Assembly (NCBI GenBank): GCA_036399695.1
Contig: DASWMP010000322.1
Coordinates: 8,997-72,996, forward strand
Direction: 5' to 3'
DNA: 64,000 bases
DNA from: Thermoanaerobaculia bacterium
GTDB taxonomy: Bacteria > Acidobacteriota > Thermoanaerobaculia > Gp7-AA8
The notes under the pieces were generated by a model, which did no database searches, had not been told where the DNA came from, and worked only from the letters and a program-made list of their open reading frames with translations. This document shows, piece by piece, positions 7,091 through 43,788 of the stretch (the stretch's first letter is position 1; every line of letters begins with the position of its first letter). A program made the position numbers and the translations under genes.

Positions 7091-7705
7091 TTACTCCAAC
7101 ACCACCAACACCACCCGCCGGTTCACGGAGCGGCCGTCGCGGGTCTTGTTCGACTCGACCGGGAGGGTGTCGCCGTAGGAGATGGTGGACATGCGGGCGA
7201 GGGGGAGTTTGTGCTCGCGGGAGAGGTAGCGGCGGACGGAGTCGGCGCGGCGCTGGCCGAGCTCGTCGTTGTAGGGCGTGGGGCCGGTGTCGTCGGTGTG
7301 GCCCTGGATCTCGATGAAGTACTGCGACTCCGTTCCCTTCACCTTCGAGGCGAATTCGTCGAGGGCGGCGCGGGCCTGGTCATTCAGGTCGTACGAGTCG
7401 AGCTTGAACTTGACGCGGTCCTCGGAGAACGACTGCTCGAAAACGACGTTGCCTTTGGCCAGCACGCCGGCTTCCTGGGCGCGCTGCAGTGCTTCGCGGG
7501 CTTCGCGGCTCAGCTCAGCGAGACGGACGTCGGTCTGCTTCTGCTTTTCCTGCAGGTCTTCGACCTGCGAGGCGACGGACTCGATCTTCTCGTTCGACTG
7601 GGCCTGGGCGTCGGCGATCTTGCGATCGACGGACTTCGAGGTGGCGCATGCGCCGAGGAGCAGGGCGAGGGCTGTGACCGAGAGTGCGTTCGTTACCTTC
7701 TTCAT
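7091..7705 (-). CDS. OmpA-family lipoprotein (peptidoglycan-associated).
   Basis: Lipoprotein signal (LLLGAC), a coiled-coil region, and a C-terminal OmpA-like domain (IEIQGHTDDTGP...NRRVVLVV). Confidence 0.85.
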   Translation of the reverse strand: MKKVTNALSVTALALLLGACATSKSVDRKIADAQAQSNEKIESVASQVEDLQEKQKQTDVRLAELSREAREALQRAQEAGVLAKGNVVFEQSFSEDRVKFKLDSYDLNDQARAALDEFASKVKGTESQYFIEIQGHTDDTGPTPYNDELGQRRADSVRRYLSREHKLPLARMSTISYGDTLPVESNKTRDGRSVNRRVVLVVLE

Positions 7706-8709
7706 TACTTCCCTTCCTTTCGTTGCTGCGGTTTTTTCCGCGAAGCGGCGGCACTCATGACCGGCGGTTCGGTGCCTCGGTACCCGGCGCGCACCCTGAC
7801 GGATTGCACGCGCCCCGCAAGCTTCAGGGTGATGCGGCGGTACTTGACGGCGCCTTTTCCCGTCGGCGAAAAGCCGATGAGGTACTGCGCGCGGAGCTCT
7901 TGTTCGATGCCATCGAGGGCTTTGCCGAGCTGCGCCGGCCGGTTGCCGACGTAGAGCTTCCCTCCTGTGAGCGTCGCCAGATCGCCGAGCAGGGCAAGGT
8001 CCGACGACGACTCTGAAGTCTTCGTTTCTTTCGTGAATTCGCCCGGCTCACGGAGGCCGACGGCGTAGATCGGCACCGCCACGCCTTCGAGCAGTCGCGC
8101 GATCTGCGGGCGGGTGAGCTGCGAGTTGTTGTCGATGCCGTCGCTCAGCAGGACGATGGCACGCGTCGGATTCGTCCCGAGCTGGCTGCGCTCCGGGATG
8201 TCGGCCACGGCGTCGAAGAAGGCCGTCTTGCCGTATGGTTCGAGCTTGTCCATGGCCACCAGGATCGGGGCCGGGTCTGTGGTGAAGGGGACGATCTCGC
8301 GTGCCTGCCCTTCAGCGAAGACGTACAGGCTGAAGTCGTCCCCAGTCTTGCGGCGGGAGATGAGCGTCGTGACGGCCGCACGCGCGGCCTCGAGCTTGCC
8401 GGCGAGCCCCATCGAGCCGGAGCCGTCGACGAGGAGCGTCCAGGAGACGGGGGCGTTCATCGACTTCTCGAACATGTCGCTCGGGACGGGCCGGCCGTCG
8501 ATCATCAGCGACACTTCTTTGGCGTCGAGGTTGGTGATGGGAACGCCGCGGGAGCCGAGCACCGTGAAGGGGATCATCACGTAGCTGACGGACAGCTCCT
8601 CGGTCACCTGGGCGGTGACGCCGGCTGCGACGAGCAGGAGAAAGAGCGTAAACCTGGCTGCCCGTCTCATGCGCGATGTCAACAAATAACTTCGTCCGCG
8701 CGATTTCAC
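7705..8709 (-). CDS. von Willebrand factor A domain protein. An alternative start is Met 8670.
   Basis: MIDAS motif DGSGSM in a vWA fold, preceded by a signal peptide. The stop overlaps the start of the OmpA-like gene. Confidence 0.8.
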   Translation of the reverse strand: MKSRGRSYLLTSRMRRAARFTLFLLLVAAGVTAQVTEELSVSYVMIPFTVLGSRGVPITNLDAKEVSLMIDGRPVPSDMFEKSMNAPVSWTLLVDGSGSMGLAGKLEAARAAVTTLISRRKTGDDFSLYVFAEGQAREIVPFTTDPAPILVAMDKLEPYGKTAFFDAVADIPERSQLGTNPTRAIVLLSDGIDNNSQLTRPQIARLLEGVAVPIYAVGLREPGEFTKETKTSESSSDLALLGDLATLTGGKLYVGNRPAQLGKALDGIEQELRAQYLIGFSPTGKGAVKYRRITLKLAGRVQSVRVRAGYRGTEPPVMSAAASRKKPQQRKEGK

Positions 8710-8774
8710 TACCTGTTATTTGGGTCCTGAGCTGTCGCGCTGCCTAGGGACAATATTTGCGCGGCCCGCCGGCC

Positions 8775-9185
8775 TCAGCCGCGTTTGAGAGGGATAAACG
8801 TCTGATCTTCCTGGTGTCTACGCTCCCAGCGGAGGAAGTCGTAATAGCCGCAGGTGGGGCGGTCCGGGTACTCGTGGCAGACGCCGGGACGGGCCGTGTA
8901 GACCGAGCAGCGGCGTGTTTCGAGATCGATGAACATACAGATCGAGCCGTAGATCTCGTCCTTCTGATGCCGCAGGACCTGTTCGCCTTCGACGACTTTC
9001 GTGAAGCGCTTCGCGGCGACGTCGAGCTCGATGCCGAAGTGGCGCGCCAGCCGGCCGAGGTCGCGCTTCGTGACGATGATCCGGTCGTAGCTGCAGCAGT
9101 ACGCCGGGCACTTGAGGCAGTCGTAGAACTTGCGCGGGGCGATCGTCGGCATGTCGGACATGGATGCGTTCCAGTGTAATGGCAT
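8775..9185 (-). CDS. YkgJ-family cysteine-cluster protein (UPF0153).
   Basis: CLKCPAYCCSY...C...C pattern. The N-terminal 60 residues of the long ORF look spurious, so the start was taken at Met 9185 (alternatives 9162 or 9153). Confidence 0.65.
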   Translation of the reverse strand: MPLHWNASMSDMPTIAPRKFYDCLKCPAYCCSYDRIIVTKRDLGRLARHFGIELDVAAKRFTKVVEGEQVLRHQKDEIYGSICMFIDLETRRCSVYTARPGVCHEYPDRPTCGYYDFLRWERRHQEDQTFIPLKRG

Positions 9186-9209
9186 CGCCCTCGCTCCGCC
9201 ATCACCGTC

Positions 9210-9347
9210 ATGACCAAATACGACAAAGAGCTCGACACCCGGACGGACGAGTACGAAGAGGCGATGAAGCCGAAGCGCGATGAGGAAGAGGTGCAGCGCG
9301 AGTTGCGCGACGCGCAAAAGGACGAGGAAGCGAAGCAAGACGAATGA
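9210..9347 (+). CDS. Candidate 45-aa highly charged (K/E/D-rich) small protein, translationally coupled to the downstream hydrolase.
   Basis: ATG at 9210. The TGA stop (9345-9347) overlaps the ATG of the next gene (9344), giving an ATGA junction. The ORF is below the cutoff of the supplied ORF track. Confidence 0.35.
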   Translation: MTKYDKELDTRTDEYEEAMKPKRDEEEVQRELRDAQKDEEAKQDE

Positions 9348-10342
9348 TGGGACGCGCGATCGCACTGCTGGGAAGTCTGATCACGAGTGCCTGCTGTACG
9401 TCTTTGCCGAAGCAGGCGGTGAAGGGCGTGGCGTTCCCCGCGGCCGACGCGATGGGACAGATGCGACCCGTGGGACCTTTGGGAAGCGGGGGCGCGGACG
9501 CATCCCTTAGGTCCGATGAGTCCCATCTGTCCGCTTCGACTGTCACGGAAGAGAGCTACGTCTGGCGCGATGAAAAGCGCAGCCGCGACGTGCCGGTGAA
9601 GCTGTATGTCCCCACGGCCAGCGACAGGCATCCGGTGGTGGTCTTCTCGCACGGCATCGGGGAGAACCGCGACTCGTACGCCTACCTGGGGCAGGCGCTG
9701 GCGCGGGCGGGCTTTCTCGCCGTTCACGTCACGCACGCCGGGACCGACAAGGCGGTGCTCGCGCACGGCTACCGCGCGCTCTACCGGCAGGTGAAGCAGC
9801 CGAAGAACTGGATCGCCCGTCCGTTGGACGTCAGCTTCGTCCTCGACCAGCTCGCGCGGCGCAAGGACGCGGACATGGATCGCGTCGCCGTGGCCGGTCA
9901 CTCAGCCGGCGCGTTCACCGCCTTCGCCCTCGCCGGGATGCGCACCGTGAACGGCGGCAACTTCCGGGACGAGCGGGTCAAGGTGGTAGTGCCGATGTCG
10001 ATGCCGCGCCTGGATCACATCGTGCCGGAAGGAGGCTACGCGACCATCACGACCCCCGTGCTGAACGTGACGGGGACGTGTGACACGTCGATCATCTACC
10101 GCACCTTTCCCCGTCACCGCCGCATCCCGTTCGAGCGGAGCCGCGGGCAGTTCCTCGTCACGATCGAGAGGGTGAATCACGACAGCTTCGTGCTCGACGA
10201 TCCGCGCCATGAGCTCATCGCGGACCTCGTCATCGCCTTCCTGCGCGGCTATCTGCTCGGCGATCCGGGTGCACGGGCGTGGTTCGAGGAGCCGGGGAAT
10301 GCCGAGCTCGTCGGCGTAAATCTTGCGGTGGAGCGGCGTTAG
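9344..10342 (+). CDS. Secreted alpha/beta hydrolase (PAF-acetylhydrolase / dienelactone-hydrolase-like).
   Basis: Signal peptide, then a GHSAG nucleophile elbow and an alpha/beta-hydrolase layout. Confidence 0.75.
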   Translation: MMGRAIALLGSLITSACCTSLPKQAVKGVAFPAADAMGQMRPVGPLGSGGADASLRSDESHLSASTVTEESYVWRDEKRSRDVPVKLYVPTASDRHPVVVFSHGIGENRDSYAYLGQALARAGFLAVHVTHAGTDKAVLAHGYRALYRQVKQPKNWIARPLDVSFVLDQLARRKDADMDRVAVAGHSAGAFTAFALAGMRTVNGGNFRDERVKVVVPMSMPRLDHIVPEGGYATITTPVLNVTGTCDTSIIYRTFPRHRRIPFERSRGQFLVTIERVNHDSFVLDDPRHELIADLVIAFLRGYLLGDPGARAWFEEPGNAELVGVNLAVERR

Positions 10343-10359: not shown

Positions 10360-11088
10360 ATGGACCATGCCGTCGGTCTCGTGCAGGCCTATCTGCAGCT
10401 CAACGGTTACTTCACCTCGGCGGAATCGCCGATCTTCGCGGGCGCGGGCCGCAACGGCGTCCGTACCGTGACGGACATCGACATCCTGGCGTTCCGCTTC
10501 CCGACCGGCATGGAGGAAGTGCACGGCCGGCGGGAGCCACGCGCCCTCGACATGACGCAGCTCGACGCCGGTCTGGCCGTGCCGCCCGATACGGTGGACA
10601 TGATCATCGGCGAGGTGAAGGAAGGACGCGTCGGCATCAACTCCGCCGTGCGCGATCCGCTGGTGCTCAAGGCGATCATCAGCCGCTTCGGTGAAGGAGC
10701 CGACTACGACAAGGTCGTCGAGGAGTTGCTGAATACCGGCACCGCGCAGATCCCCCCGCATTACACGGTGCGCCTGATCGCGTTCGGCTCGTTCCCCCCC
10801 GGCTCGCAGGTCCCGCCGTGCCGGATCATCAGCCTCGGGCACGTGCTGAACTTCCTGCAGCAGTACGTGCGGAAGCACTGGGGTATGCTGCGTCATCTGC
10901 AGTTCAAGGACCCGGCTTTCGGTTTTCTGATGACGATCGAGAAGGCGAAGCGGGGCGGCGCCGGACGCCGCGGCGAGCAAGGCGTGGAAGTCGTGCCGGC
11001 CGTCGGCGAGGAACGCATCGCCCATCCCCGCCCGCAGGAGGCGTCGCGTCGTCACGGACCGCCCGGGCACCGGAGGAATGGGAAGTGA
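10360..11088 (+). CDS. Hypothetical protein, possibly a PD-(D/E)xK-like fold.
   Basis: Strong GC3 bias. AGGAG lies upstream of ATG 10360. The stop overlaps the GTG of the next gene. Motifs TDIDIL...GEVKEG are noted. Confidence 0.55.
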   Translation: MDHAVGLVQAYLQLNGYFTSAESPIFAGAGRNGVRTVTDIDILAFRFPTGMEEVHGRREPRALDMTQLDAGLAVPPDTVDMIIGEVKEGRVGINSAVRDPLVLKAIISRFGEGADYDKVVEELLNTGTAQIPPHYTVRLIAFGSFPPGSQVPPCRIISLGHVLNFLQQYVRKHWGMLRHLQFKDPAFGFLMTIEKAKRGGAGRRGEQGVEVVPAVGEERIAHPRPQEASRRHGPPGHRRNGK

Positions 11089-11492
11089 GCGAGAAACCGA
11101 TTTTCGACTCCCGGGATCCGATTTCCGGCGTGACGCGAAGGCGGTTCGCGCAGCTCGCGGCCGCTGCTGCCGCGGTGTTGCCGTCCGCGCTCCCTGCGAC
11201 ATTAGCGGCGCAGGAAGTGCCGGCGCAACCGCAGCAGTCGCAGCTCTCGGCGGCGGCGCAGGCGGAAGTGGATGCGCGCATCGCCTGGACCTTCGGCAAG
11301 TATGGGGCGCGGCTCGACGACGCGCAGAAGGCGGACATTCGCAGACTGATCACCGGCTCGTACGCCGGCTTCGAGCAGATGCGCGCGTATCCGCTGGACA
11401 ACAGCGTGGAGCCGTCGACGGTGTTCCGCGTCTGGCGCGCGGCGCCGCGGCGCGCCTTCGTCCCGAAAGTGGAGCGGAAGGAGAAGTCGTGA
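11085..11492 (+). CDS. Small twin-arginine (Tat) signal protein, 135 aa.
   Basis: GGAGG lies 7 nt before GTG 11085. The N-terminus (SGVTRRRFAQLAAAAAAVLP) is a Tat motif. The TGA stop overlaps the GTG of the amidase (GTGA). Confidence 0.6.
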   Translation: MSEKPIFDSRDPISGVTRRRFAQLAAAAAAVLPSALPATLAAQEVPAQPQQSQLSAAAQAEVDARIAWTFGKYGARLDDAQKADIRRLITGSYAGFEQMRAYPLDNSVEPSTVFRVWRAAPRRAFVPKVERKEKS

Positions 11493-12880
11493 TCGGCGAG
11501 GACGTCCTCTATCTCACGGTCACGGAGCTGGCGTCGCGCATCAAGTCGCGGGCGCTCTCGCCGGTCGAGCTGACGGAGGCGTACCTGCAGCGGAGCGAGT
11601 CGGTCGGCGCGCGTCTCAACGCGTACGCCACGATCACGCGTGAGCGGGCGCTGACGGAAGCGCGTGAAGCGGAACGGGAGATTGCCGCCGGCCGCTATCG
11701 CGGGCCGCTGCACGGCATCCCGTACGCGGCGAAGGATCTGCTGGCGGCGAAGGGCTATCCGACGTCGTGGGGTGCGCCGCCGTATGCGAATCAGCGCTTC
11801 GACTTCGACGCCACGGTCATCCGCAAGCTGAAGAACGCAGGTGCGGTGCTCGTCGGGAAGGCGGCCATGATCGAGCTGGCCGGCGGGATGGGTTACCGCT
11901 ACGGCACGGCGTCGATCACAGGCGGCACGAAGAACCCGTGGAACGAGAACTGTTGGACGTGCGGCTCGTCGAGCGGCTCCGGCGCGATCGTCGCGGCGGG
12001 GCTGGCGGCGTTCGCCATCGGCACCGAGACGTGGGGCTCGATCGTCTGCCCGTCGGCCTTCTGCGGCGTGTCGGGACTGCGCCCGACGTTCGGACGTGTC
12101 GGCCGCGGCGGGGCCATGGCGCTGTCGTACTCGATGGACAAGATCGGCCCGATGGCCCGCAGTGCCGACGACTGCGGCCTGATCCTGGCGGCCCTCTCCG
12201 GCCACGATCCGGACGACCGCCATTCACTGCCGGACGAGGAAGGGCTCTTCGCCTACGAGCGTGACGCACGGAAGCTGCGGGTCGGCCGCGTCACGAATGC
12301 CTGGGGCAGCATGCCGGAAGACATCGCCTCCGCGACGAACGCCGCGTTCGAAACGCTGCGCGCCGGCGGCGCCACGATCGTCGACGTGAAGCTGCCGGAC
12401 GGCCCGTGGGAAATGGCCGCCGCCGTGACGATCCAGGTGGAAGGGGCGTCGGCGTTCGAGTCGCTCATCGAGTCCGGCCGCGTCTCGGAGCTGCGCGATC
12501 CCGGCAGCCGCATCGGCGGCTACGTCAACATGACCATCCCCGGCCCCGACTACCTGCGGGCCCAGCGCATCCGCACGGTGCTGCAGCGGGAGATCGACAA
12601 GGTCTTCGAGCAGGTGGACGTGGTGGCCTCCGCCACGCTGCCGATCACCGCCACGCGCATGGAGACGAACCTCGAGAGCGACTTTGCCTTCTCCGATCCG
12701 ATGGGCGGCATCGGCAACTTCGCCGGGCTGCCGGCCATCAGCGTGCCCTCGGGGCTGAGCTCACGCCGGCTGCCGATGGGCGTGGTGTTCATGGGGCGGG
12801 CGCTGGATGACAACGCGGTGCTGGCGGCGGCGCGGCTGTTTCAGTCGAGGACGGACTTTCATCAACAGCGGCCGGTTTGA
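11489..12880 (+). CDS. Amidase-signature family amidase.
   Basis: GGSSGGS-type signature (CGSSSGSGAIVAAG) and a Ser-cisSer-Lys arrangement. GTG start at 11489. No signal peptide of its own. Confidence 0.88.
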   Translation: MIGEDVLYLTVTELASRIKSRALSPVELTEAYLQRSESVGARLNAYATITRERALTEAREAEREIAAGRYRGPLHGIPYAAKDLLAAKGYPTSWGAPPYANQRFDFDATVIRKLKNAGAVLVGKAAMIELAGGMGYRYGTASITGGTKNPWNENCWTCGSSSGSGAIVAAGLAAFAIGTETWGSIVCPSAFCGVSGLRPTFGRVGRGGAMALSYSMDKIGPMARSADDCGLILAALSGHDPDDRHSLPDEEGLFAYERDARKLRVGRVTNAWGSMPEDIASATNAAFETLRAGGATIVDVKLPDGPWEMAAAVTIQVEGASAFESLIESGRVSELRDPGSRIGGYVNMTIPGPDYLRAQRIRTVLQREIDKVFEQVDVVASATLPITATRMETNLESDFAFSDPMGGIGNFAGLPAISVPSGLSSRRLPMGVVFMGRALDDNAVLAAARLFQSRTDFHQQRPV

Positions 12881-12884
12881 AGCA

Positions 12885-12970
12885 AGTTGGCGGTTGGCAG
12901 TTGGCAGTGGAGTACCAAAATCGCGGAGCCATTTCCACTGCCAACCGCCAACTGCCAACCGCCAACTGTC
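12885..12970. repeat. R2 palindromic element (TTGGCGGTTGGCAGTTGGC arms).
   Basis: Inverted arms between two convergent genes. Other copies sit at 28401, 34731 and 43713. Confidence 0.85.
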
Positions 12971-12971
12971 T

Positions 12972-14579
12972 CTAGTGCACCACCACCCGGTTTCGCCCGC
13001 TGCGCTTGGCCTCATACAGCGCCACATCGGCACGGCGCACGAAGGCCTCGGTCAGGGCGCCGTGGCTGTCGCGCTCCGGGATCGTGGTGGCCAGGCCGGT
13101 GCTGATGGTGATGCGTTGCATTGGGGCGGCGGGGTGGGGGATGGCCAGCTCGGCGATCTTTTCGCGGAGTGCTTCGGCCAGCTTCAGCGCCTGCTCGGCG
13201 CCGGTATCGGAGAGCAGCACCACGAACTCTTCGCCGCCGTAGCGGGCGACCAGATCGCCGGCGCGTTGCAGTGAGTCGCGCAGCGTCTTGGCCACCCGGC
13301 GCAGGCAATCGTCGCCGGCCTGGTGGCCGCAGGCGTCGTTGTAGGCTTTGAAGAAATCGATGTCGATCAGCATCAGCGACAGTGGTCCGTGCGTGCGGGC
13401 GCCGCGCCGCCATTCGCTGGCGAGCATCTCGTCGAAGTGCCGGCGGTTGGAGACGCCGGTGAGGCCGTCCTGGGTCGAGATCTCGTGCAGCGTCTCGATG
13501 GCGTGGGCGAGATGGGCGTTCGCTTCTTCGAGGGCGAGCTGTTTCTGCTCGAGATCCGCGCGCGCCTGGAAGAGACTGATCGCGCCCGCGACCTGATCGG
13601 CGAAGGCTTCGAAGGCCAGCACGTTCGCGGGGGTGAAGACGTCGGACGTGCGGCTTTCGAGGTTCAGCACGCCGAGCACTTCGTCGCGGAACCGGATCGG
13701 GACGGCGAGCTCCGACACGACGCTCGGGTTCACGTCCACGTACTCCGGGTCCTGGGTGACGTCGAGCACGAACTGCGTCTGCGCCATACGGATGCAGCGG
13801 CCGACGATCCCGCGCGAGACAGGCCAGCGCTGGCCGGCGAACTCCATCGAGCCGGAGACGGCCCGCTCGACGTGCTCCCCCTGCTCCCTGTTGTGGATCA
13901 GGATCGTCACGATCTCGACAGGGAAGCGGTCGTGGATGTAGTTGACGACGCGATTGAGCAGGTCGTCGAGCGTCTCGGCGTCGAGCGCGGTGCGCGACAC
14001 CTCGCTCATCATCTGCATCAGGCCGGCGCGCTGTTTCAGCTCGTCGTACATCCGCGCGTTGGCGATGGCGCCGGCGATCTGGTCCGCGACCGTCGTGAGC
14101 AGCGGGAGCTGTCCATGAAATGCGGCGAGGCGCGTGCTCTCGAGGTTCAGCACCGCGACGAGCTCCCCCTTGTGGCGCACCGGGACGCAGAGCTCCGACC
14201 GTGCGTCCGGCATCGTCTCGACATAGCCGGCGACACCGCGGACGTCGTCGAGGAGGATCGGCTCGCCGGTGAGCGCGACCTGACCGACGATGCCGCTGCC
14301 GATGGGGCGGGCGTAGCCGGGGTGAATGTGCGTCTCAACGGCGCTCGTCACCGCTTCGCAGGTGAAGACGTTGCGCTCCTGTTCGACGAGCACAAGCGCG
14401 ACGAACTGCCAGTCGAACTTGTTCGCCAGCGCGTCGGTGATGCGCTGCATCATCGGGCGCAGCTCGAGATCCGAGGTGGCGATGCGGCCGATTTCGTTGA
14501 GGATCTCGAGCTGCTGCGCGCGCGGGTCGGGCGGAGGGTGATGAAAGCCGAGACCCGTACGTCGCTCCACGAAACTCAT
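12972..14579 (-). CDS. GAF-GAF-GGDEF diguanylate cyclase.
   Basis: Two GAF domains and a GGDEF domain (RYGGEEF, LIDIDFFKAYND). The start was taken at MSFVERR (14579). Confidence 0.9.
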   Translation of the reverse strand: MSFVERRTGLGFHHPPPDPRAQQLEILNEIGRIATSDLELRPMMQRITDALANKFDWQFVALVLVEQERNVFTCEAVTSAVETHIHPGYARPIGSGIVGQVALTGEPILLDDVRGVAGYVETMPDARSELCVPVRHKGELVAVLNLESTRLAAFHGQLPLLTTVADQIAGAIANARMYDELKQRAGLMQMMSEVSRTALDAETLDDLLNRVVNYIHDRFPVEIVTILIHNREQGEHVERAVSGSMEFAGQRWPVSRGIVGRCIRMAQTQFVLDVTQDPEYVDVNPSVVSELAVPIRFRDEVLGVLNLESRTSDVFTPANVLAFEAFADQVAGAISLFQARADLEQKQLALEEANAHLAHAIETLHEISTQDGLTGVSNRRHFDEMLASEWRRGARTHGPLSLMLIDIDFFKAYNDACGHQAGDDCLRRVAKTLRDSLQRAGDLVARYGGEEFVVLLSDTGAEQALKLAEALREKIAELAIPHPAAPMQRITISTGLATTIPERDSHGALTEAFVRRADVALYEAKRSGRNRVVVH

Positions 14580-14604
14580 CGCTTCCGTTATGCCCCGAGC
14601 AGAC

Positions 14605-14650
14605 GATGGGACCAATGGGACCTATAGGACGCATGGGACCTATAGGACGG
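14605..14650. repeat. R6 tandem 9-mer repeat.
   Basis: atgggaccaatgggacctataggacgcatgggacctataggacgg. Confidence 0.8.
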
Positions 14651-14757
14651 ACGCGGGCTGGATGGGCGCCAGTTCACCCCCCGAGGATACGACGATTCCG
14701 ATCTCCGAGTGCCGATTTACCGGAAACCGGATCTCGGAGACCGGAAATCGTCCTCCC

Positions 14758-15624
14758 TCACCGGATCCGCACTTCCACCCGCTGCCCCAGCTTGAGCGGC
14801 GTCTTCTCGTCGAAGGCGATCTTCACGAGCAGCACGCGCGCGTCGATCGGCTTGGCCGGATCCTGCGGCTTGAGGCGGCGGTTCACGACGGCGTCGGGGA
14901 TCTCTTCGATCGTGCCCTGCCAGGGCTGGTCGTAGCCTTCGGCGAGGATCGTTGCTTCACCGCCGAGGCGGACGCGCGAGGCGTCGTACTCATCGACTTC
15001 CGCTTCGACGCGTGTCTTGTCGAGGTTCGCAACCGTCACGAGCTGCGCGCCGCTTTCGACCGACTCGCCGGCGTGCACGTGACGGGCGATGACGACGCCG
15101 TCGATCGGCGCGGTGATGACGGTCTTGGCCAGCACCGCTTCGAGGCGTCGCAGCTCGGCGACGGTCGAGGCGCGGCGCGCACGGGCGGCGTCGAGATCGC
15201 GCTCCGCCTTGTCCCACGCCTGGCGCGAGCCGACGTCTTCCTGGAAGAGGCTCTTCGCACGCGCGCTCTCCGACTCGTACAGCCGGATGTCCGCTTCGGC
15301 TTCACCGACGCGTGCCCGCGCCTCGGCGATGGCGGCGCGGGTGTCGTCCGCCTTGATCGTGGCGATCGTCTGTCCTTTGCGCACGTGGTCTTTCTCGTCG
15401 ACCGTGAGCGTGGCGATGGTGCCGGCGACGTCGGTGCCGATCGTCACCTCGGCGCCCGGATACGCGACGAGGCGTCCTTCGGCGACGACTTTCGCCGCGT
15501 CGGGCTTCACCACGGCGCGCTGCTTCGGCGGCACGCTGCCGCGCGCGCTGCGCATTGCTTTCACCTGCGCAACCGTGACGATGATCAGCAGAAGGGCCAG
15601 TGTGGGGTAGAGGTACTTTCTCAT
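14758..15624 (-). CDS. HlyD-family membrane-fusion (periplasmic adaptor) protein.
   Basis: N-terminal anchor, coiled-coil hairpin and beta-barrel lipoyl-like motifs typical of MacA/DevB. Confidence 0.85.
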   Translation of the reverse strand: MRKYLYPTLALLLIIVTVAQVKAMRSARGSVPPKQRAVVKPDAAKVVAEGRLVAYPGAEVTIGTDVAGTIATLTVDEKDHVRKGQTIATIKADDTRAAIAEARARVGEAEADIRLYESESARAKSLFQEDVGSRQAWDKAERDLDAARARRASTVAELRRLEAVLAKTVITAPIDGVVIARHVHAGESVESGAQLVTVANLDKTRVEAEVDEYDASRVRLGGEATILAEGYDQPWQGTIEEIPDAVVNRRLKPQDPAKPIDARVLLVKIAFDEKTPLKLGQRVEVRIR

Positions 15625-15636
15625 TGACGTTGCTCC

Positions 15637-16296
15637 TCAGGCCGCGAGGCGGCCATCGTGAATCTTGACGACGCGATCGGCGATGCTGCGCACCTTCGGA
15701 TCGTGCGTGACGATCACCAGCGCGCGGTTTTCCTGCTTGGCGAGGTTGCGGAACATTTCGAGGACCTGCGTGCCGACGACGGAGTCGAGGTTCGCCGTCG
15801 GCTCGTCGGCCAGGAGGATCGGCGCATTGCCGGCCAGCGCACGGGCGATGGCCACGCGCTGCTTCTGCCCGCCCGACAGGTCGCGCGGCAGAAAGTGCGA
15901 GCGGTCCGACAGACCGACCGCATCGATGACGCGCTTCGCTTCCGTCTGCGCGGCGGTGCCCTTCACGCCCTTCACGTTGAGCGCGTACTCGACGTTCTCG
16001 GCGGCGGTGAGTGAAGGAAAGAGGTTGAACTGCTGGAAGACGAAGCCGAGCGAACGTTTGCGGATCTCCGCGAGCCGCCGCTCGGTGACCTGCTGCCCTT
16101 CGATGAAGACCTCGCCTTCCGACGGCGTGAGGATGCAGCCGAGGATCGAGAGGAAGGTCGTCTTTCCCGAGCCGGAGGGCCCTTCGAGCGAGACGATCTC
16201 GCCACGCTCGACACTGAAGTCGATCCCCTTCAGCACGGGGATCGTCTCGCGTCCCTCGGTGAAGGTTTTTACGACGTTATGCGTCTCGAGGATCAT
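15637..16296 (-). CDS. ABC transporter ATP-binding protein (DevA/MacB-ATPase-like).
   Basis: Walker A GPSGSGKTT, signature LSGGQKQRVAIARAL and Walker B ILLADEPT. The start was taken at MILETHN (16296). The long Arg-rich extension of the ORF was ignored. Confidence 0.9.
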   Translation of the reverse strand: MILETHNVVKTFTEGRETIPVLKGIDFSVERGEIVSLEGPSGSGKTTFLSILGCILTPSEGEVFIEGQQVTERRLAEIRKRSLGFVFQQFNLFPSLTAAENVEYALNVKGVKGTAAQTEAKRVIDAVGLSDRSHFLPRDLSGGQKQRVAIARALAGNAPILLADEPTANLDSVVGTQVLEMFRNLAKQENRALVIVTHDPKVRSIADRVVKIHDGRLAA

Positions 16297-16355
16297 GTGA
16301 GCTCCGATTTTCGATTCACGATTTCCGATTTCCTGGCGGCGCTGGTTTCGCGCCG

Positions 16356-17486
16356 CTATGCGCGAAACACCAGCGCCGGATCGATCGACGCCACTTTCCG
16401 GAACGAGATCACCGCGGCCGTGAGGCAGAGGAGGATCGAGCCGGCGAAGACGGCGATGAAGAGCGAGTTGGGGATGATGAGCTTGAGGTCGATCTTCGAC
16501 ATGACCGGGCGCAGGGCGAACGCCTGCAGCGCGCCGACGGCGAAGCCGGCGACGGCGGCGATCGTGGCCTGCTTGCCGAGGATCTTGTAGATCTCGCCGT
16601 TGCCTCCGCCGATCGCTTTGACGGTGCCGAACTCCTTGATGTGCTCCATCGTGGAGGTGTAGAGCGTCTGCGCGACGACCACGATCCCGACGAGGCAGCC
16701 GAGGAAGACCGTGATGTACATGTTCAGTCCGAGGCCTGTCGAATCGATCCAGTAGCTGCGTGAGCGCCTGGCCCATTCGTCGCGGAGATAGACGTCGTTG
16801 AACGGCAGGCGGCGCTGGATCTCGGCGCGTACCGCTTCGGCGTCGGTGCCCGGTGCGAGCTTCACGAGGATGTACGTCGTATTGCCGCGCAGCGTGTCTT
16901 CGGCGAGGGCCTGGGCCATGCGGAAGTCGAGGAAGGTGAGCGGCGTCGTCGTGAACGACTTCGCGTCGACCGTGCGGCCGATGATCTTCAACCGGCGGCC
17001 GAGGACTTCGCGGTATTCGCCGACCTCGAACGCGCCCCAGCGCTTCTTCGCCGAATCGTCGAGGACCATGTAAGGGCCGCGGCGGAGATCGTCGAGATTG
17101 CCATCGGTCACGTTGGCCGGAAAGCTCCAGGCGGCGAAGTTTTCGAGCGCGTAGACCTCCGTCCCCTCGACGGCGCCGGTCGGCAGGTTCACGTTCATGA
17201 ACCAGACGATCAGGTTGTCCGCGCGCTCCACCCCTTCGATCGACCGGACGCGCTTGATGTACGTCTCCGGGAAGGTGTGGGCAAAGTCGACGTTCGGCGT
17301 GTTGCGTGACGTCACCCAGAGGTCGGCGTCGATCTGGTCGATCGTGAGCGAGGCGTTGTCCATCAGGCCGAGGAAGAGGCCGACCTGGACGAAGACCAGC
17401 GTCACGGCGAAGGCGACGCCGGAGACGGTGATGAAGAAGCGCAGCTTGTCGTGGAGAAGACTGCGGACTGCGAGATCGACGGACAT
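16356..17486 (-). CDS. ABC transporter permease, FtsX/DevC-like.
   Basis: 376 aa with an N-terminal TM helix, a large periplasmic domain and three C-terminal TM helices (FtsX fold). Confidence 0.85.
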   Translation of the reverse strand: MSVDLAVRSLLHDKLRFFITVSGVAFAVTLVFVQVGLFLGLMDNASLTIDQIDADLWVTSRNTPNVDFAHTFPETYIKRVRSIEGVERADNLIVWFMNVNLPTGAVEGTEVYALENFAAWSFPANVTDGNLDDLRRGPYMVLDDSAKKRWGAFEVGEYREVLGRRLKIIGRTVDAKSFTTTPLTFLDFRMAQALAEDTLRGNTTYILVKLAPGTDAEAVRAEIQRRLPFNDVYLRDEWARRSRSYWIDSTGLGLNMYITVFLGCLVGIVVVAQTLYTSTMEHIKEFGTVKAIGGGNGEIYKILGKQATIAAVAGFAVGALQAFALRPVMSKIDLKLIIPNSLFIAVFAGSILLCLTAAVISFRKVASIDPALVFRA

Positions 17487-28400: not shown

Positions 28401-28500
28401 GTTGGCGGTTGGCAGTTGGCGGTTGGCAGTAAAGATTGGCGGTAGGTATGTGGCGCCGGCGGGTTCTCCTGCCTACCGCCAACTGCCTGCCGCCAACTGC
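28401..28500. repeat. R2 palindromic element.
   Basis: gttggcggttggcagttggcggttggcag ... ctaccgccaactgcctgccgccaactgc. Confidence 0.85.
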
Positions 28501-34730: not shown

Positions 34731-34830
34731 AGTTGGCGGTTGGCAGTTGGCGGTTGGCAGTGGACAAAGCAAGGAACCGGTGCTCGGCCGGTGCCGGCGC
34801 CTCATCCACAGCCAACCGCCAACTGCCAAC
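34731..34830. repeat. R2 palindromic element in a divergent intergenic region.
   Basis: agttggcggttggcagttggcggttggcag ... cagccaaccgccaactgccaac. Confidence 0.85.
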
Positions 34831-43712: not shown

Positions 43713-43788
43713 AGTTGGCGGTTGGCAGTTGGCGGTGGCCTTGACGATGGTTGACTCCCGCCAACTGCCAACCGCCAACTGCCAACAG
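43713..43788. repeat. R2 palindromic element.
   Basis: cagttggcggttggcagttggcgg ... ccgccaactgccaaccgccaactgccaac. Confidence 0.85.

Follow-up and report, generated by a model that had tools for sequence, protein, structure and literature searches.

In a stretch of 64,000 nucleotides from a Thermoanaerobaculia bacterium of the Acidobacteriota (GenBank assembly GCA_036399695.1, contig DASWMP010000322.1, positions 8,997 to 72,996 of the forward strand; the whole of this stretch is called the window, and positions are counted within it), we find a small gene, B, whose product bears a predicted twin-arginine translocation (Tat) signal, and which overlaps the start of a gene, C, for an amidase-signature (AS) hydrolase that has no signal of its own. 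Comparison of related loci indicates that B and C very probably constitute an obligate two-gene module, and the frequency of their pairing is far beyond chance. We further propose that their products probably assemble in the cytoplasm into a heterocomplex of the GatCA/AtzEG kind, which would then be exported through Tat on the signal of B. The broader proposal, which in our judgement could equally well prove right or wrong, is that the B family consists of Tat-signal-bearing carriers derived from GatC/AtzG, and that GatCA has been repurposed a second time, as an exported extracytoplasmic amidase, in Acidobacteriota and Halobacteria.

Gene B (11085..11492, plus strand, like all genes described here unless stated otherwise) begins with GTG and encodes 135 residues, comprising the predicted Tat signal peptide (residues 1 to about 42; 11085..11210), a Pro/Gln/Ala-rich linker and a conserved domain of about 65 residues, which represents the mature part (residues 54-121; 11244..11447). 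Gene C (11489..12880) also begins with GTG and encodes the signal-less hydrolase of 463 residues. The stop codon of B and the start codon of C share the four nucleotides GTGA (11489-11492), an arrangement which implies that translation of the two genes would be coupled. Upstream, the stop codon of gene A (10360..11088, ATG start), encoding a conserved hypothetical protein of 242 residues, overlaps the start of B in the same manner (GTGA, 11085-11088). The three open reading frames (ORFs) and their coordinates, both overlaps and the RRRF motif in B (preceded by Thr), all reported in an earlier note on this DNA, were confirmed in the sequence. The G+C content at third codon positions (GC3) is 0.86 in A, 0.85 in B (0.91 in its conserved domain) and 0.90 in C, in a window of 65.7% G+C, and these high values indicate that A, B and C are all coding. 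Each of the three starts is preceded, at a distance of 6-12 nt, by a GGAGG-like site.

The N-terminus of B, MSEKPIFDSRDPISGVTRRRFAQLAAAAAAVLPSALPATLAAQ, contains the twin-arginine motif followed by an Ala-rich h-region, whose Kyte-Doolittle maximum over 12 residues is 1.97. The motif reads T17-R-R-R-F-A-Q (T17-RRRF-21 at 11133-11147), and R18, R19 and F21 are at least 90% conserved in the family alignment, in which A-L-A followed by Q/E is conserved as well; cleavage near TLA/AQ was judged by eye. Every untruncated B protein has [ST]RRxF, as seen by eye in the genome loci and in 64/64 metagenome loci, the four apparent exceptions among the metagenome proteins all being cut by contig ends, and across the family the motif occurs in 162 of 174 members. 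When 150 full-length members were compared with models of Tat signals, ten matched PF10518 (best E 1.1e-5) and twelve the Rieske TAT-signal model. These matches vanish for 62 sequences reduced to the domain, so that only full-length proteins give them. The window's own B has no match at E<=0.1 to the curated Tat models PF10518 and TIGR01409. A profile of B searched against the sequences of the PDB retrieves weak matches to the signal peptides of NapA and PaoA.

The B family is large and has gone without annotation. A word-indexed database yielded 26 homologues, and a full HMMER scan yielded 1269 cluster representatives (clusters at 50% identity) at E<=1e-3, 378 of them at <=1e-10. The best 150 of the 1269 are all short, at 62-214 residues, and include no fusion to an amidase. 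In searches with single sequences, neither Pfam nor NCBIfam had a model for the family, and the carrier shows no recognisable cofactor-binding family or motif. Two homologues, P0001 and P0008, bear source names unrelated to their sequences, 'CubicO group peptidase (beta-lactamase class C family)' and 'type IV pilus biogenesis protein CpaD/CtpE', which looks like annotation spill-over.

The case for a two-gene module comes from searches made from both sides of the pair. A scan from the side of B, with one genome per species, gave 32 loci, all from metagenome-assembled genomes of Acidobacteriota (Thermoanaerobaculia, Terriglobia/Angelobacter, Acidoferrum and Korobacteraceae) but one labelled Saccharimonadales. 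An orthologue of C, 57-87% identical, stands directly after B in all 31 of the genome loci with room for it, and two further loci found through gene A (L040 and L043) raise this adjacency to 33/33. Identities of B across the loci are 37-75%, against 57-87% for C, so B evolves faster than its neighbor. From the side of C, a metagenome scan returned 80 loci with 59-74% identity to C; wherever at least 260 nt of upstream sequence was present (70/70 loci), a match to a hidden Markov model (HMM) of the B domain lies immediately upstream of C, with 43-122 bits; the four loci that lack such a match are too short upstream, at under 60 nt, to be informative. Conservation of the pair in related genomes, on which the earlier note had made its reading depend, thus holds in both directions. 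The 4-nt overlap between B and C recurs in 17 of the 33 loci and in nine metagenome loci, many of them of Thermoanaerobaculia type; the other spacings, 1-nt overlaps among them, lie between an overlap of 13 nt and a gap of 40 nt, except for one of 128 nt. The locus labelled 'Candidatus Saccharimonadales' (L013, DATMNZ010000138.1) has a typical acidobacterial B-C pair, Angelobacter-like neighbours and a glycogen-phosphorylase-like gene downstream, and is probably a mis-binned contig.

The pair is also present in Archaea. In a tblastn search of C against plasmids, the best matches were in Haladaptatus caseinilyticus (48% identity) and Halapricum desulfuricans (43%), and on both haloarchaeal plasmids a small gene overlaps the start of the amidase. 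The Haladaptatus small protein has 134 residues and contains DRRTALQLFAAVGG, with the motif DRRTAL. The Halapricum gene is annotated with 62 residues, but its open frame reaches 144 residues and then contains NRRSTLGLLAALG, with the motif NRRSTL; the annotated start of this protein (WP_229123026.1; 2067-2501 of locus L034, on plasmid NZ_CP064792.1) is probably too late. It was the amidase, and not B, that led to these two proteins; they match 57-58 of the 68 positions of the B-domain HMM, with 28 and 31 bits, and the Halapricum amidase has the subfamily motifs GSSSGS and TETWGS. A tblastn search of plasmids with the B domain itself found nothing besides these two loci. The flanks of the pair are variable: Angelobacter loci have a glycogen-phosphorylase-like gene, Halapricum has an S8 peptidase, and some Thermoanaerobaculia have an alpha/beta hydrolase. 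They revealed no transporter or pathway genes conserved from locus to locus, and the loci whose gene lists were inspected contained no GatB or AtzH partner.

That C is an AS enzyme without a signal, as the earlier note had it, is borne out by a match of 327 bits to the Amidase family PF01425 (E 2.8e-97, cut-off 27) and by the position of its N-terminus at the start of the AS fold. Residues 6-11 of C align with residues 3-13 of GatA and of the mature peptide amidase, and there is therefore no room for a signal peptide. The Ser-cisSer-Lys triad is intact: Lys82 (11732-11734), Ser160 (11966-11968; the invariant position is Ser160/161) and Ser184 (12038-12040) do not vary among 32 orthologues. The nearest counterparts of the catalytic core are GatA (E 3e-63) and the peptide amidase Pam (E 9e-54), and an Asp matching D425 of Staphylococcus aureus GatA is retained, according to our own indexing of the alignment. 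Unlike AtzE and GatA themselves, C scores below their family cut-offs, as it does for every NCBIfam equivalog: 283 against 481 bits for GatA (TIGR00132) and 253 against 461 for AtzE (NF006631).

Pam of Stenotrophomonas maltophilia (PDB 1m21/1m22) is an AS enzyme with the same unusual core motifs as C, CGSSSGS and GTETxGSIVCP (GTETWGSIVCP in C), while its C-terminal half aligns poorly with that of C (12.5 bits). Pam is periplasmic, bears an N-terminal signal itself and is not known to need a small partner. Five cysteines of C (C155, C158, C187, C192 and C229; residues 155-229, window positions 11951-12175) are each 88-100% conserved in the B-linked amidases, and C158 and C187 stand on either side of the catalytic serines, as they do in Pam.

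The amidase frame is open upstream as far as an ATG at 11078, giving an ORF of 600 residues, and one might therefore suppose that B is not a gene at all and that the amidase starts at this ATG or bears a cryptic signal. We hold this to be almost certainly wrong, and the supposition is already refuted as far as the sequence evidence reaches. The open stretch before C is not conserved: its length differs among orthologous loci, from 0 to 153 codons, and in three of them (L010, L014 and L015) a stop codon stands directly before the amidase start; no N-terminal extension was ever found in the orthologues of C, and the haloarchaeal amidases are likewise signal-less. The B frame, for its part, has a GC3 of 0.85-0.91 and is conserved in more than 1000 clusters. 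The earlier note had itself raised both a signal-bearing amidase start and an untranslated small ORF as objections, and the stops in the extension and the 1269 cluster representatives speak against the one and the other.

A structure predicted by AlphaFold with the family alignment shows B as a signal helix, a disordered Pro/Gln/Ala linker, a two-helix hairpin (residues 56-76 and 79-100) with a predicted local distance difference test (pLDDT) score of about 94, and an extended tail, YPLDNSVEPSTVFRVWR, whose conserved pattern is 'PLxNxxEPAxxF'. This architecture, a helical N-terminal part followed by an extended conserved segment, is that of AtzG and GatC, which are known obligate partners of amidases of the GatA/AtzE class. 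In AtzG-AtzE, the 1-carboxybiuret hydrolase of Pseudomonas sp. ADP, and in GatC-GatA, a part of the GatCAB transamidosome, the gene for the small non-catalytic protein directly precedes that for a GatA-like AS enzyme, as B precedes C. AtzE is insoluble without AtzG, the operon order is atzG-atzE, and the pair derives from GatCA (PMC6219798). Unlike B, with its Tat signal and low-complexity linker, AtzG and GatC lack a signal peptide and work in the cytoplasm.

Several searches point in the same direction. The top PDB match of the B model in Foldseek is AtzG (6c62_C, E=1.8), with human GATC at rank 12 and all matches at E >1. When members were scanned singly against Pfam, the AtzG-like family PF13318 was matched by 9 of the 150 full-length proteins, and among the 62 domain-only sequences it was the top family with eight matches, the next family having three and GatF a single member. 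In one example, residues 24-61 align with positions 13-50 of the 50 positions of PF13318, with 17 bits against a gathering cut-off of 24, and the best E-value of any member is 0.0014, which is below the threshold for the family. An hhalign comparison of the B-domain profile with five GatC sequences drawn from PDB alignments gave a score of 15.1 (columns 23-61 against 19-57; probability 1.9%), which 0 of 200 column-shuffled GatC alignments reached (mean 9.5, standard deviation 1.6, maximum 14.7). The B-domain HMM gave no signal against the same five GatC sequences, and among the PDB sequences the B profile found neither GatC nor AtzG, but just weak Tat-signal and Spy-like matches. Because no match to AtzG or GatC passes a family threshold, we do not file B as a member of either; the weak matches, taken with the gene order, look like distant homology or at least the same role, and we propose that the B domain may be an amidase-binding, AtzG/GatC-like module.

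Signal-less ORFs of 62-71 residues overlap the starts of more distant amidases in Aminobacter, Variovorax and Deinococcus. The small ORF of Aminobacter has a tail like that of B, LRAMPLKNIEPAILFRP (9.9 bits), although a search for its homologues returned itself alone and there was no match in the PDB or Pfam; that of Deinococcus is GatC-like by eye, and neither it nor the Variovorax ORF has a match in Pfam. On the Variovorax plasmid (L037), an alpha/beta hydrolase lies directly before the pair of small ORF and amidase. A match on a Pantoea plasmid (H24), considered as a possible atzG-atzE cluster, was set aside, as its upstream neighbor is a tautomerase gene and a small ORF is lacking.

A number of points weigh against an exported complex of the GatCA/AtzEG type. 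All similarities to AtzG and GatC are sub-threshold (at best 17 against 24 bits in Pfam, E=1.8 in Foldseek and 1.9% in hhalign), the window's own B matches neither PF13318 nor PF02686, and the column-shuffle control is a lenient one, since shuffled alignments lose their helical periodicity. The helix of B with the pattern 'L[ST]xxQK' weakly resembles periplasmic proteins of the Spy/CpxP type. Moreover, classical hitchhiker cargos such as hydrogenases, DmsAB and PaoABC are cofactor enzymes, and amidase-signature enzymes need no cofactor, so that the reason for using Tat, a need for pre-assembly, is itself something that we infer.

The resemblance to Spy leads to a different explanation, in which B would be exported alone as a Spy/CpxP-like periplasmic chaperone or sensor, C would stay in the cytoplasm, and the adjacency would reflect co-regulation. 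Full-length members do match Metal_resist (8/150) and LTXXQ (3/150) weakly, and the domain profile weakly matches Spy (LTDAQKQQIREI, E 0.5-1), but this likeness is largely lost once the signal is removed: LTXXQ then matches 1 of 62 sequences, Metal_resist is not among the 25 families listed for the domain-only scan, and the AtzG-like family comes out on top with 8/62. The mature domain does not qualify as a member of the Spy/CpxP families (PF07813, PF13801). Co-regulation alone, furthermore, seldom keeps two genes adjacent in 100% of loci, whichever gene the search starts from, with their codons overlapping and in two domains of life; and since signal-less relatives of the small protein sit on amidase starts, the small domain goes with the enzyme and not with a compartment. 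We regard separate export of B as unlikely.

A similarly low probability attaches to the idea that B is a transient export chaperone, a 'caddie' of the kind that MelC1 of Streptomyces is for tyrosinase, which leaves or is degraded after passage through Tat. The comparative evidence on the pair fits transient and permanent binding alike, the Tat signal of tyrosinase is among the weak PDB matches of the B profile, and the faster evolution of B (37-75% identity, against 57-87% for C) would suit such a chaperone. AtzG and GatC, however, the closest remote relatives of B, are permanent subunits, and a conserved extended tail is typical of a structural subunit that wraps around its partner.

In the pathway that we favor, that of a stable B-C complex exported by Tat, B would be translated with its N-terminal twin-arginine signal and C would follow by way of the coupled stop and start codons. 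In the cytoplasm, the mature domain of B, with its hairpin and tail, would attach to folded C much as GatC does to GatA and AtzG to AtzE, and the Tat translocase would recognise the signal of B and move the pre-assembled complex across the membrane. The signal-less amidase would thereby reach the periplasm, or the outside of the haloarchaeal cell, as a hitchhiker. The signal would probably be cleaved at the conserved A-x-A site, with B staying attached through the Pro/Gln/Ala-rich linker region, and the variable, low-complexity linker may give the signal its reach while the domain clamps a cargo of 50 kDa. Outside the cytoplasm C would hydrolyse an amide substrate, plausibly for nitrogen scavenging. 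If, following the precedent of AtzE, the amidase needs its small partner to fold, then assembly must precede export, which would supply the rationale for Tat; and with the signal on the partner, only assembled enzyme would leave the cell.

Tat hitchhiking is established for complexes such as PaoABC (PMC4273604). In such complexes the signal is on one subunit, the catalytic partner is signal-less, and the genes lie side by side and are conserved together (PMC4273604; Rodrigue et al. 1999, cited in PMC6708511). Like the hydrogenase small and large subunits, DmsAB, PaoABC, and MelC1 with tyrosinase, B and C have a signal on one subunit only and are co-inherited, and their joint export would complete the parallel. 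Unlike those systems, in which the cargo carries complex cofactors and the signal subunit is usually a redox protein, here we have a hydrolase and a carrier of about 90 residues. Hitchhiker co-export, which the earlier note had put forward for this pair, gains from the conservation of the pair in both directions and in two domains of life, and from the sub-threshold AtzG/GatC signal, while the complex itself and its dependence on Tat are what we infer from sequence. The same concept, a small Tat-signal subunit beside a signal-less catalytic one, is found in the gluconate 2-dehydrogenase subunit 3 family of membrane-associated flavoprotein dehydrogenases, but the relation to that family suggested earlier was not upheld, there being no sequence or profile similarity in any search.

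The literature searched did not describe any AS enzyme with a Tat-signal partner, or DUF4089/AtzG-like proteins in that role; the 'amidase' that occurs in papers on Tat refers to AmiA/AmiC. Tat hitchhiking and the small subunits of the GatC/AtzG type are both known, and it is their combination, together with the size of the unannotated B family, that appears to be new. If the proposal is true, Tat hitchhiking extends beyond cofactor enzymes to a plain hydrolase, and the only roles of the carrier are support in folding and targeting for a cargo that has no cofactor. The use of Tat would then be explained by an amidase lineage that needs a GatC-like partner to fold, and hence assembly before export. 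A sizeable family of small, unannotated proteins in abundant soil bacteria would receive a name and a role, and the extracytoplasmic amide-hydrolysing activity may matter for nitrogen scavenging in Acidobacteriota. The pair may also serve as a compact natural two-gene system in which to study or engineer the co-export of folded complexes.

Gene A is a different matter. The earlier note had joined A, B and C into a three-gene operon, and of this the overlaps A/B and B/C stand, but A is not a conserved member. Of the 32 genome loci, 11 have A upstream of B-C, as do 9 of the 80 metagenome loci, and all of these are Thermoanaerobaculia-like; in Terriglobia and Halobacteria, B-C occurs without A. 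Five look-ups of its context show that the syntenic position of A is fixed, with OmpA, VWA and CxxCxxCC genes upstream and a GAF-GGDEF gene and an ABC exporter of the MacB type downstream. L039 and L042 have A by itself at this position; in L041 the upstream alpha/beta hydrolase is the only addition, in L040 B-C is, and L043 has both. As A is found without B-C and B-C without A, A is a neighbor and not a partner; as far as synteny goes, the A/B overlap is compaction, and B-C is a cassette that may be present or absent behind a resident A.

The protein itself has 1247 homologues, the best 120 of which are all at least 69% identical, and has no match in Pfam, NCBIfam or PADLOC, while a search of the PDB sequences was uninformative. 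Residues D39, D41, E85 and V86 are invariant and K87 is nearly so, all of them on predicted strands of an AlphaFold2 model with an alpha/beta fold (pLDDT 73, predicted TM-score 0.72). Foldseek found nothing in the PDB at E<0.25, its list mixing nucleotidyltransferases with restriction-type nucleases, and D39/D41/E85-V-K87 is compatible, in the model, with a PD-(D/E)xK-like site. On the strength of the GTGA overlap and of the loci that have A upstream (11/32 and 9/80), A could be thought to form one system with B and C, as a cytoplasmic PD-(D/E)xK-like enzyme or a Tat proofreading chaperone for the pair. This we consider very improbable: A keeps the same syntenic spot in three loci that lack B-C and is missing from the Terriglobia and Halobacteria that have it, is far more conserved and apparently more widespread than B, and showed no similarity to chaperones of the NapD/TorD type in the family, PDB and Foldseek searches.

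The synteny around A is conserved in Thermoanaerobaculia. In the window, the block upstream of A lies on the minus strand (7091-9365) and contains OmpA-like, VWA-domain and CxxCxxCC (PF03692) genes; the downstream block (12972-17486) contains a GAF-GAF-GGDEF diguanylate cyclase and the membrane-fusion, ABC and MacB/FtsX components of an exporter. An alpha/beta hydrolase at 9344-10342 (plus strand) has weak matches to platelet-activating factor acetylhydrolase, chlorophyllase and PETase-like enzymes, and the hydrophobic stretch at its N-terminus, MMGRAIALLGSLITSACC, could represent a signal or a lipobox. Its presence or absence in related genomes is independent of A and of B-C. The minus-strand ORF 8775..9365 (196 residues) overlaps the start of this hydrolase; its orthologues have about 128 residues, and its true start is probably more internal.

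Between the convergent amidase and GAF-GGDEF genes lies an imperfect palindrome (12885..12967, no strand assigned) made of GTTGGCR heptamers, with a stem of 24-26 nt. This element is probably a bidirectional terminator or an element resembling repetitive extragenic palindromes that marks the 3' end of the unit. It recurs in intergenic positions of the window at 28401-28432, 34732-34830 and 43714-43786, and an 18-mer has 18 matches in the window at <=3 mismatches, against an expectation of 0.01.

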